From Escherichia coli (GTDB lineage: Bacteria; Pseudomonadota; Gammaproteobacteria; Enterobacterales; Enterobacteriaceae), in NCBI RefSeq assembly GCF_003334255.1, contig NZ_QOWU01000011.1: a stretch of DNA of 64,000 nucleotides; one strand, 5' to 3'. The notes under the pieces were generated by a model. That model ran no database searches. It had not been told where the DNA came from and saw nothing but the letters and a program-made list of their open reading frames with translations. Positions 19,089 to 57,091 of this stretch are shown here, piece after piece; within the stretch, counting starts at the first letter, position 1, and each line of letters opens with the position of its first letter. The position numbers were made by a program, and so were the translations under genes.

Positions 19089-19895
19089 TTAACCCTGACG
19101 CGCCGCTTTCGCCATCATCTTCTTCAGCGCATGAGAAACCGCAACAAACCCAAAGGTGGCGGTCACCATCGTTGCCGCGCCAAATCCAGATGCACAATCC
19201 ATCCGCTTCGGCCCTTCTGCCGTGGCTTTCATCGCACACACCGTACCGTCTGACTGCGGGTACACCAGCGCTTCAGTAGAAAACACGCAATCCACGCCGA
19301 GCTTACCTTTACTGTTTTTCACTACGCCAAAATCGCTTTTCAGGCGCTCGCGCAACTTCGCCGCCAGCGGGTCCTGAATCGTTTTCGCCAGATCGGTAAC
19401 CTGAATCTGCGTCGGATCAATCTGCCCACCCGCGCCACCGGTTGTGACCAGTGGGATTTTATTGCGCCGACAATAAGCAATCAGCGCCGCTTTGGGCCGT
19501 ACACTATCAATGGCATCAATCACGTACGAATAACCCACGCTCATATACTGCGCTACGTTATCCGGCGTCACGAAATCATCCACCACCGTTACACGGCACT
19601 CCGGGTTAATCTGGCGAATACGCTCCGCCATAACTTCCGCTTTTGCCAGCCCAACGTTATCGCGCAGGGCATGAATTTGCCGATTGGTATTGGTGACGCA
19701 CACATCATCCATATCGATAAGCGTGATTGCGCCAATCCCCGTGCGCGCCAGCGCTTCCGCCGCCCAGGAACCGACACCACCGATACCAACCACACAAATA
19801 TGCGCGTCAGCAAACAGTTGCAACGCTTTTTCACCATACAGACGCGCTGTGCCACCAAAACGCTGACGCCATGCATCACTAATTACCACAGACAT
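19089..19895 (-). CDS. tcdA: tRNA threonylcarbamoyladenosine dehydratase (E1-like ThiF/MoeB fold)
   Basis: 268-aa ORF with GIGGVGS nucleotide-binding motif; recognised as TcdA (CsdL/YgdL). Confidence 0.9.
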   Translation of the reverse strand: MSVVISDAWRQRFGGTARLYGEKALQLFADAHICVVGIGGVGSWAAEALARTGIGAITLIDMDDVCVTNTNRQIHALRDNVGLAKAEVMAERIRQINPECRVTVVDDFVTPDNVAQYMSVGYSYVIDAIDSVRPKAALIAYCRRNKIPLVTTGGAGGQIDPTQIQVTDLAKTIQDPLAAKLRERLKSDFGVVKNSKGKLGVDCVFSTEALVYPQSDGTVCAMKATAEGPKRMDCASGFGAATMVTATFGFVAVSHALKKMMAKAARQG

Positions 19896-54596: not shown

Positions 54597-56015
54597 TCAG
54601 ACGCCGATATTTCTCAACTTCTCGCCTGCCATCAGTTTGCGTTCGATATGTTCCAGCGTGACATTTTTGGTTTCCGGAATGAGCCAGAAAGTAATGCCCA
54701 CAAACGCAATGTTCAGCGCAGTGTAGAGCCAGAACGTACCGGCAGCGCCAATGCTATCAAGCAGTGTCAGGAAGGTCGCGCCGATAATCATATTCGACAC
54801 CCAGTTCGTGGTGGTCGAACAGGTAATACCGAAATCGCGGCATTTCAGCGGCTGAATTTCAGAGCACAGGATCCACACCACTGGCGCGGCGCTCATCGCA
54901 TAACCGGCAATACACATCATCGTCATGCCAACAGAGAGCCAGGACAAGCCACTGGAAGCCGTACCGTTATCAAACTGCATCAGGCAATAGCCCAGCACCA
55001 GAGTGCCTAACGCCATCACGCTGAAACCAATTTTCAGAGCCGGTTTACGCCCTGCTTTATCTACCGTAAACACCGCAATAAAGGTGGCGAACATAAAGGT
55101 CAGCCCTACGACCAGAGTCGCAATCATCTGTTGTTCTGTGGTCGTAAAGCCCGCCATTTTGAAGATACGCGGCGCGTAGTACATGATGATGTTCATACCG
55201 GTAAACTGCTGCATCGCCTGCAACAACATACCGAGAAACACAGCACGACGGACGTTACGGTTGATCTTAAACAGTGCCCAACCGCCCTGTTTTAACTTCA
55301 GGCTTTCACGAATTTCGTTGAGTTCTTCTCGCGCTTTTTCCGACGTATCGCGCAGCATACGCAATACTTCTTCCGCCTCAATATGACGCCCCTTTTCCGC
55401 CAGCCAGCGCGGGCTATTTGGCAGGAAGACTACCAGAATAATCAGCAGAACTGCTGGTAAAGCAAGAACCCCCAACATTGCGCGCCAGTTACCGCTATAA
55501 CTGAACGCTGTATCGGATAAAAACGCCAGCACGATGCCGAGTGTGACCATCAACTGGTACATACTGATCATCTTACCGCGAACGTTTTCACTTGCCATTT
55601 CAGAAAGATACAGAGGAGCGGTGTAAGACGCGATCCCGACAGCAATGCCCAGCACCACACGAGCGGCGATTAACATCTCTACGCTGGTCGCAAAAGCGGA
55701 CCCTATAGAACCGAGTACAAACAGGATGGCCCCCGCCATCAGGCTGTATTTACGCCCCAGGCGGAACGACAGCCAACCATTAAACAGCGCACCAATTGCT
55801 GCACCGAGCATCATGCTACTAACCACCCATTCCTGCAAACGACTGGTCAGCACAAAGTGATCGGTAATGAACGGCAACGCTCCGGCGATTACGCCGATAT
55901 CAAGACCAAATAACAATCCTGCGACCGCAGCAGCTACCGAAACAAACATATTCATACGCCGCGTATCCCGCAAAGAACGTGGCGTTAAAGCAGATTCCGT
56001 ATTGATAGTAACCAT
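54597..56015 (-). CDS. araE: Arabinose:H+ symporter (MFS)
   Basis: 472-aa ORF from ATG 56015 ([15 protein letters not shown]...); the 515-aa track ORF is an upstream extension. Confidence 0.9.
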
Positions 56016-56283
56016 TTTTTCCTGCCAGCAGAGAGTAAGACATAGTGAAAAAATACGTGAACAACTCACGCAGGTGTCAGGTCGGAAACAGCATAAATAT
56101 GGATTAAATTGCTGCGACATGTCGTTATGTGATGGATATTCCAATTTTCAAATTAAGTTGAATTATTGAGATTATTATTAACCACCTAATTTTACAGCAG
56201 ATAAAATTCATAAAGTTCATTAATTGATAATTAATATGGATTATTTCATAACCATGATATGGATTATGATGATCTACAGGTAT

Positions 56284-56307
56284 AAAAAACCCTGCCATGC
56301 GGCAGGG
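56284..56307 (-). terminator. Intrinsic terminator downstream of kduD
   Basis: On the minus strand: ccctgcc-gcat-ggcaggg hairpin followed by a T6 run (plus-strand A-run 56284-56289). Confidence 0.65.
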
Positions 56308-56329
56308 TCATAAAAGTAAGAAGAATGAA

Positions 56330-57091
56330 TTAACGCGCCAGCCAACCGCCATCCACGGCAATGGTATAACCATTCACATAATCTGAAGCGCTGGAGGCAA
56401 GGAACACTATCGGCCCCATCAGGTCACTCGGCAGTCCCCAACGACCAGCTGGAATGCGGTCGAGAATTTCCGCGCTACGTTGTTCATCTGCCCGTAGTTG
56501 TTGAGTATTGTTGGTCGCCATGTAACCCGGGGCTATCGCATTAACATTAATGTTGTGTTTAGCCCATTCGTTCGCCATCAATCGCGTCACACCCATCACG
56601 CCGCTTTTTGATGCGGTATAAGAAGGCACACGGATCCCGCCCTGGAAGGAGAGCATTGACGCGATATTGATAATCTTGCCGCCATTGCCTTGCGCGATAA
56701 AGTGTTTCGCCGCTGCCTGAGACATGAAGAATACGCTCTTGATATTCAGGTTCATGACATCGTCCCAGTCCTTTTCGCTGAACTCGAGAGCATCTTCGCG
56801 GCGAATCAATCCGGCGTTATTCACCAGGATATCAATATGACCAAACTCCGCTACCGCGCGATCCAGCAGTGCTGGAATACCATCAATCTTTCGCAGATCG
56901 GCGGTCAGGCTTAAAAAACGACGCCCCAGCGCTGTGACCTGCTCGATGGTTTCAGTCGGTTCAACGATGTTAATGCCAACAATGTCACAGCCCGCTTGCG
57001 CCAGCCCCAACGCCATCCCCTGACCCAGTCCAGTATCACAACCAGTGACGACCGCAACTTTACCTTCGAGAGAAAATGCACTTAAAATCAT
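56330..57091 (-). CDS. kduD: 2-dehydro-3-deoxy-D-gluconate 5-dehydrogenase (SDR)
   Basis: 253-aa ORF with SDR glycine motif (VTGCDTGLG); recognised as KduD. Confidence 0.95.
   Translation of the reverse strand: MILSAFSLEGKVAVVTGCDTGLGQGMALGLAQAGCDIVGINIVEPTETIEQVTALGRRFLSLTADLRKIDGIPALLDRAVAEFGHIDILVNNAGLIRREDALEFSEKDWDDVMNLNIKSVFFMSQAAAKHFIAQGNGGKIINIASMLSFQGGIRVPSYTASKSGVMGVTRLMANEWAKHNINVNAIAPGYMATNNTQQLRADEQRSAEILDRIPAGRWGLPSDLMGPIVFLASSASDYVNGYTIAVDGGWLAR

Follow-up and report, generated by a model that had tools for sequence, protein, structure and literature searches.

Conserved distal TCCATA boxes upstream of araE in Escherichia coli are candidate auxiliary AraC half-sites

The intergenic region upstream of araE in Escherichia coli contains two direct repeats, here named D1 and D2, which we lean towards interpreting as auxiliary, low-affinity AraC half-sites that consist of a B-box alone and that would together form a distal araE operator, probably looping to the activating half-site I1. 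This best explanation draws on sequence comparison: the two boxes have the sequence and orientation of AraC B-boxes, obtain scores from an AraC matrix, are deeply conserved across genera and keep their spacing to I1. The repeats were found in a 64,000-nucleotide stretch of an E. coli contig (NZ_QOWU01000011.1), referred to below as the window, whose araE upstream DNA (55900-56500) is 100% identical to several complete E. coli genomes.

Organization of the araE control region

The elements discussed here are listed by window coordinates:

54597-56015, minus strand: araE coding sequence (arabinose:H+ symporter), the regulated gene; ATG at 56015-56013, from translation and RefSeq annotation
56050-56080, minus strand: inferred araE core promoter; -35 CTGACA at 56080-56075, -10 TATTTT at 56055-56050
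56077-56093, minus strand: I2, promoter-proximal AraC half-site, TGCTGTTTCCGACCTGA, 4 bp after I1 and overlapping the -35
56098-56114, minus strand: I1, canonical AraC half-site of the araE promoter, CAGCAATTTAATCCATA, containing a third, 10/11 copy of the repeat
56128-56143, minus strand: CRP-like site, TGGAATATCCATCACA in araE sense; cross-genus consensus TGtAAtgTCCATCACA
56144-56234, minus strand: A+T-rich spacer from D2 to the CRP site, conserved in length, mostly not in sequence
56234-56267, plus strand: interval of the original prediction, two ATATGGATTAT units and the 12 bp between them
56235-56251, minus strand: D2, second distal half-site (predicted), TTATGAAATAATCCATA in araE sense
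56258-56274, minus strand: D1, distal AraC-type half-site (predicted), GATCATCATAATCCATA in araE sense
56288-56309, minus strand: intrinsic terminator hairpin of kduD, the upstream edge of the araE control region
56330-57091, minus strand: kduD, upstream of araE and on the same strand

Two exact copies of ATATGGATTAT are present on the plus strand at 56234-56244 and 56257-56267, 23 bp apart from start to start, just as the original prediction had described them, and both fall within the 314-bp kduD-araE intergenic region. In araE sense, which is the opposite strand, both units read ATAATCCATAT. The TCCATA B-box of D1 (56263-56258) begins at -248 from the ATG and lies 160 bp upstream of the I1 B-box, while that of D2 (56240-56235), 23 bp downstream of D1 in araE sense, begins at -225 and lies 137 bp upstream of the I1 B-box; this agrees with the earlier placement of the repeats 220-250 bp upstream of the araE start. 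On its upstream side, the D1 17-mer starts 14 bp past the stem of the kduD terminator and 8 bp past its T-run. A repeat finder returned a third copy of ATATGGATTAT that had been overlooked, matching at 10 of 11 positions (56097-56107) and 137 bp from the nearer repeat, and this copy forms the B-box of I1, the canonical AraC half-site. In total, the window contains eight matches to ATATGGATTAT with at most one mismatch, compared with 1.0 expected, and three of these are within the kduD-araE intergenic region. One-mismatch copies also occur at 19704, 31485, 52823 and 57322. Directly after the TCCATAT of D2, at window position 56233, the K-12-type sequence has a T (TCCATATTAAT) and all seven other Escherichia sequences compared have a C (TCCATATCAAT).

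Control of araE by AraC through a promoter-proximal site is textbook knowledge. The activating, mapped AraC site of araE is I1-I2 (56077-56114), beside the -35, and the repeats are therefore something further upstream. The 17+4+17 layout of araE I1-I2 is identical to that of araBAD I1-I2 (TAGCATTTTTATCCATA-AGAT-TAGCGGATCCTACCTGA), and the I2 half-sites of both promoters (araBAD, TAGCGGATCCTACCTGA) share the ending ...CCTGAC, which is kept across genera; the TAnnnT and CTGAC of the araE core promoter are also kept in the alignment described below. I1 retains both its A-box AGC and its TCCAT in the 64 regions selected for comparison, where the selection pattern fixed AG and CCAT and left the C (63/64) and the first T (64/64) free to vary. 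The CRP site, a strongly conserved block, is located directly upstream of I1, as in araBAD (PMC2893085), and the usual depiction of PE shows no more than this site and I1-I2 (PMC2893085).

Two further features of this proximal region were observed. A terminator-like hairpin with a T-run (TGCGTGAGTTGTTCACGTA TTTTTT; 56054-56072, minus strand) lies between the araE -35 and -10 elements and overlaps the -10; its stem is not obviously conserved in the alignment with other genera, and it probably arises merely from the T-richness around the -10. Within the CRP site, the 6-bp spacer (56131-56136, minus strand) is almost invariant across genera (..AATgTCCATCACA), and such a spacer is not normally specified by CRP. 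The result is a TCCATC that resembles a B-box and lies 33 bp upstream of that of I1; it could be a further weak AraC contact or reflect a constraint of another kind.

D1 and D2 resemble O2-type AraC half-sites

A 17-bp half-site matrix was constructed from nine non-araE half-sites (araBAD I1, I2, O1L, O1R and O2, two from araFGH and two from ytfQ), whose sequences were checked against MG1655. When the window was scanned with this matrix, a check that the original prediction had itself proposed, araE I1 ranked first of 127,968 positions (16.4 bits), D1 ranked fifth (13.1 bits) and D2 ranked 91st (6.7 bits). The reference values are 13.7 bits for araO2 and 8.4 bits for araBAD I2, both of which belong to the training set. 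The sole other exact copy of ATATGGATTAT in the window (61868-61878, minus strand) is within the coding sequence of yqeH, annotated as a helix-turn-helix transcriptional regulator; the matrix gave no hit above 9 bits at this copy, which is best regarded as a chance occurrence.

D1 and D2 both carry the exact B-box TCCATA, followed in each case by a T, as in araO2 and araE I1. All four araE half-sites (D1, D2, I1 and I2) are direct repeats in one orientation on the araE-sense strand, and the TCCATA boxes of araBAD O2 and I1 (-299 and -88) are likewise both on the araB-sense strand. D1 fits exactly the sequence common to araI1 and araO2, xAxxxxxxxxxTCCATA (PMC11983282). The A-box TAGC, 7 bp upstream of the B-box, is absent from both distal sites, with GATC in D1 and TTAT in D2, and araO2 likewise has no TAGC A-box. 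A partner half-site at the canonical 21 bp (4-bp gap) is also absent, as D1 and D2 are 23 bp apart (6-bp gap). Given the missing A-box and the spacing of 23 rather than 21 bp, D1 and D2 would therefore be O2-type half-sites and not a canonical dimer site.

The suggested likeness of the repeats to AraC half-sites thus stands in several respects, namely the TCCATA B-box, its I1/I2 orientation, a D1 score like that of araO2 and conservation across Enterobacteriaceae, with the qualifications that the repeats have no A-box, are not spaced canonically and are not the activating site. It had also been supposed that known araE AraC sites mapping elsewhere would dispose of the idea. The mapped site does lie elsewhere (56077-56114), yet the idea survives because araBAD also has a distal O2 besides I1-I2.

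The distal boxes are conserved across Enterobacteriaceae

To place these sites in an evolutionary context, 80 araE loci from Enterobacteriaceae and near relatives were collected, with one genome per species, and 64 distinct araE upstream regions were chosen for a TCCAT 148-164 bp upstream of I1. Across these selected regions, D1 reads TCCATA in 62 and TCCATG in two; its next base is T in 59/64, the base at -1 is a purine in 64/64 and the base at -10 is A in 52/64, with no conserved G or C in the A-box position of D1. D2 is an exact TCCATA in approximately 50 of the 64 and TCCATG in five more. TCCATA in araE sense is found at about -248, -225 and -88 in Escherichia, Salmonella, Enterobacter, Kosakonia, Lelliottia, Leclercia, Siccibacter, Pseudescherichia and others, and at -240, -217 and -88 in Klebsiella and Raoultella. 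Citrobacter keeps both distal boxes and has TCCATG at I1. D1 is an exact TCCATA in Kluyvera, Buttiauxella, Mangrovibacter and Cedecea and TCCATG in Franconibacter, while D2 is TCCATG in most Kluyvera loci and absent from Buttiauxella, Mangrovibacter, Cedecea and Franconibacter.

When 28 genera were aligned with MAFFT, conservation upstream of the core promoter was confined to islands at D1, D2, the CRP site and I1-I2, and these footprint islands are also seen in Klebsiella and Phytobacter araE loci. A motif-free k-mer count across the 184 bp upstream of the CRP site identified TCCATA as the most widely shared 6-mer (21/28 genera); the largest value in 200 shuffles was 13 genera, and the reverse complement of TCCATA was present in two genera only. 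Conservation is also evident at shorter evolutionary range. Among eight Escherichia sequences, 64 of the 314 intergenic columns vary (20%), including columns immediately flanking the boxes and between them, and none of the 34 positions of the D1 and D2 17-mers does (hypergeometric P = 2.6e-4).

The upstream neighbour of araE is kduD in 55 of 76 loci. D1 is nevertheless kept, as TCCATA or TCCATG, next to a non-kduD neighbour in Phytobacter, Cedecea, Buttiauxella, Mangrovibacter and Franconibacter, which indicates that the element belongs to araE; an element of kduD or of its terminator was rejected because D1 and D2 persist with a different upstream neighbour. In Salmonella enterica subsp. arizonae (L003), the distance between the end of kduD and araE exceeds that of E. 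coli by ~156 bp, with extra sequence between kduD and D1, and the D1-D2-CRP-I1 geometry is unchanged.

Spacing to I1 is conserved while the intervening sequence drifts

D1 and D2 are 23 bp apart in every genome with both boxes except for one Raoultella MAG (L018), in which a 10-bp insertion between them, ~129-162 bp upstream of I1, extends the distance to 33 bp and shifts D1 from 152 to 162 bp from I1, which is one helical turn. Most genera have D1 160-162 bp from I1, and the distance is 150-154 bp in Klebsiella, Raoultella, Kluyvera, Phytobacter, Cedecea, Buttiauxella, Mangrovibacter and Franconibacter. These two length classes, which differ by about one helical turn, for the most part track clades and may thus have arisen from a small number of independent indels.

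Most of this distance is occupied by the A+T-rich spacer between D2 and the CRP site. The stretch that was measured is 85-87 bp long in 18 genera of the 160-162 class and 75-79 bp long in the shorter class. It is 75% A+T and has a mean ungapped pairwise identity of 0.40, compared with 0.32 expected from composition. The length of the spacer is therefore held while its sequence drifts, as predicted for sites that interact physically. In the middle of the spacer is a weakly conserved IHF-like element (56178-56193, minus strand; AAAATTAGGTGGTTAA) with the consensus AAAT.A....aTTAA. The IHF consensus WATCAANNNNTTR occurs exactly and at the same relative position in four loci (L004, L006, L008 and L025), and the E. 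coli element matches 7/9 of its specified positions. The AA/TT autocorrelation of the spacer peaks at lag 10, which is only a hint because the sequences are phylogenetically related. Together, the IHF-like element and the lag-10 peak hint at a loop that is bent or bendable.

Helical phase was also considered. At 10.5 bp per turn, D2 is 13.05-13.24 turns from I1, or 12.1-12.3 in the shorter class, and at 11.1 bp per turn, the value that Lee and Schleif (1989) reportedly obtained in vivo for the ara loop, it is 12.3-12.5 turns away. D1 is 15.2-15.4 turns from I1 at 10.5 bp per turn and 14.4-14.6 at 11.1, integral at neither, and the O2-I1 distance is integral at both. D2 is thus close to integral at 10.5 bp per turn, whereas at 11.1 each of the two boxes is out of phase with I1 by roughly half a turn. 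Helical phase thus gives no clear answer and was not used as support for looping.

Comparison with araO2 and other AraC operators

As a control, the araC-araB intergenic region of seven other genera was fetched via their AraC proteins. The TCCATAT of araO2 is kept in all eight genera in the same orientation as I1, at 211-212 bp from I1 or, in Shimwellia, at 200 bp, one turn less. By this measure D1 evolves like the AraC half-site that is known for looping. The resemblance includes the architecture of the sites: like araO2, D1 and D2 have a B-box only, with no TAGC (and, for D1, an A at -10), they share the orientation of I1 and they lie far upstream of I1-I2, with a CRP site inside the would-be loop. 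They are also like araO2 in their deep conservation and in a tightly kept distance to I1, from which a variant class departs by being about one turn shorter. In contrast to the single araO2 box of araBAD, araE has two boxes 23 bp apart, and these are closer to I1 (137 and 160 bp, compared with 211 bp). The araE boxes also differ in that they are not within the leader of a divergent gene and are not clearly in integral phase with I1, and in that their binding, looping and repression are predicted from sequence.

Other operators of the arabinose regulon provide partial parallels. As a direct-repeat pair of AraC half-sites upstream of a CRP/I1/I2 block, D1-D2 is like araO1 (O1L-O1R). However, the O1 half-sites are 21 bp apart, have partial A-boxes and overlap and repress the divergent araC promoter, whereas the araE pair is spaced at 23 bp and has no divergent promoter, with the 3' end of kduD converging on it instead. 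Auxiliary upstream AraC sites were reportedly described at araFGH and araJ by Hendrickson, Stoner and Schleif in 1990, and araE would be like these promoters in having AraC sites beyond the one that contacts RNA polymerase. The araFGH region contains two separated TATGGA-containing sites. Unlike D1 and D2, with their B-box only, the upstream araFGH site looks like a full site of two half-sites with an A-box (CAGCAGATTAATCCATA then TAGCCTGGAAATCCTTG) and is opposite in orientation to transcription.

Outside the AraC regulon, short repression loops occur at lac (O1-O3, 92 bp) and at gal (OE-OI, 113 bp, with HU). The upstream sites of MelR are a further case of an auxiliary distal operator (PMC2377442). 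At lac, gal and MelR, as proposed here for araE, a distal auxiliary operator raises occupancy of the proximal site by looping over ~90-200 bp; the proteins and motifs differ, and the likeness is in mechanism only. The gal loop needs an architectural protein, and the araE spacer similarly has its IHF-like conserved element.

A proposed distal AraC operator at araE

Looping of AraC from D1/D2 to I1 would operate as follows. Without arabinose, one subunit of an AraC dimer would occupy the strong I1 half-site and the other would reach back to D2 or D1, closing a DNA loop of ~140-160 bp that encloses the CRP site and the bendable A+T-rich spacer. Such a loop would hold AraC pre-loaded at the promoter but off I2, giving no activation and a low basal level of AraE. 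Arabinose, aided by CRP, would then bring the distal subunit over to I2, a site overlapping the -35, and so start transcription. The presence of two boxes at a 23-bp spacing may mean that either one can serve as the loop partner, or that a second dimer binds them in cis. We infer AraC occupancy of D1 and D2, formation of the loop and an effect on the basal level or on induction speed.

As in an O2-type operator, the distal half-sites are upstream of I1 and on the same strand in an AraC-regulated promoter, and their distance to I1 is constrained, though the length classes follow clades and so represent few independent events. The lack of a TAGC A-box, the score of just 6.7 bits for D2, the spacing of 23 and not 21 bp and the ambiguous helical phase were counted against AraC looping. 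Also against it, AraC is not reported to have repressed the transport promoters in early genetic studies, and an auxiliary upstream AraC site at araFGH reportedly had little measurable effect. An AraC ChIP/qPCR signal has been reported at araE without arabinose, at region-level resolution (PMC3738151); this signal is compatible with pre-bound apo-AraC, and its resolution cannot place AraC on D1 or D2. A published ParaE reporter used the complete intergenic region and hence included D1 and D2, and no D-site mutant was made (PMC2893085). Full-text searches of the accessible literature, which covered neither the key araE papers nor the regulatory databases RegulonDB and RegPrecise, returned no description of distal araE sites or their sequences; within that scope, a distal araE AraC operator would be previously undescribed.

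The textbook example of DNA looping comes from the ara system, although to our knowledge looping there has been described only for araCBAD. A conserved distal operator at araE, if confirmed, would constitute a second natural loop, which is shorter, has two distal boxes and holds a CRP site inside it. In single cells, both the delay and the heterogeneity of induction by arabinose are set by how many AraE transporters are present at the basal level (PMC3935871), and a loop that tunes the basal activity of PE would consequently have a visible phenotype. This leads to a broader and more tentative proposal, which we consider plausible without favouring it, that araE is also under the control of an AraC loop, in which the two-box distal operator would bridge to I1 over ~140-160 bp, possibly helped by IHF, and would set basal AraE and, through it, both the threshold and the delay of the all-or-none switch for arabinose. 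Such a loop would be relevant to users of PBAD expression systems and to araE engineering, and the hypothesis could be tested cheaply by point mutations in the two hexamers.

Alternative explanations for the repeats

The same boxes might be bound by an AraC dimer on D1 and D2 in cis, as at araO1, with no loop to I1 and a local action; the dimer might, for instance, form a roadblock or insulator that stops read-through of the kduD terminator, counteract silencing by the A+T-rich spacer or simply be a local reservoir of AraC. Joint reading of the boxes is suggested by their arrangement as direct repeats at a fixed 23 bp (33 bp once), distances that correspond to 2.07 and 2.97 turns at 11.1 bp per turn, and the boxes sit directly after the kduD terminator, 14 bp from it; their phasing to I1, which is not clearly integral, also fits a local role. 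However, D1 occurs without D2, at an unchanged distance from I1, in the deeper lineages Buttiauxella, Mangrovibacter and Cedecea, so the pair is not required, and it is this distance that is conserved, rather than the distance or identity of the upstream gene. Moreover, the spacing is 23 and not 21 bp and neither half-site has an A-box, so a cis dimer should bind weakly, and we regard this arrangement as unlikely. Recognition of the TCCATAT boxes by a protein other than AraC, whether another regulator or a nucleoid protein, would account for their lack of an A-box, and the weakly conserved IHF-like element in the spacer indicates that other proteins may act here. Yet within this one promoter the conserved core is identical to the B-box that AraC recognizes in I1, down to the flanking T, and shares its orientation; D1 is fifth in the window on an independent AraC matrix and its conservation pattern mirrors that of araO2. 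No other E. coli regulator is known to us that recognizes direct repeats of TCCATAT, and an unrelated protein seems distinctly improbable.

A short repeat of 11 bp in an A+T-rich intergenic region could in principle arise by chance or by neutral local duplication and have no function, and the further exact copy in the yqeH coding sequence illustrates this. The conservation data effectively refute such an origin, which we consider barely credible: position, strand and spacing are kept over more than 20 genera in which the flanks have diverged, and the boxes are invariant within Escherichia (P = 2.6e-4).

Several other candidates were rejected in the course of the analysis. A 57-aa ORF covering the repeats (56125-56298, minus strand) begins inside the terminator hairpin, and conservation takes the form of 6-7-nt islands in diverged flanks and not of a reading frame. 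A second AraC-activated promoter served by D1-D2 was dismissed, as no conserved -10 is present at the required distance downstream of D2 and a promoter scan found nothing there on the araE strand. An Rfam scan of 55800-56500 returned sub-threshold noise only and no known RNA.

Finally, two E. coli genomes were found in which the araE control region is disrupted. In strain PEC240 (NZ_CM168014.1), an IS1A somewhere between kduD and araE splits the match to 55900-56500, and in strain EC6 (NZ_CP182398.1) the kduD-proximal half of this region alone matches in one place. These natural disruptions could serve as ready-made mutants.
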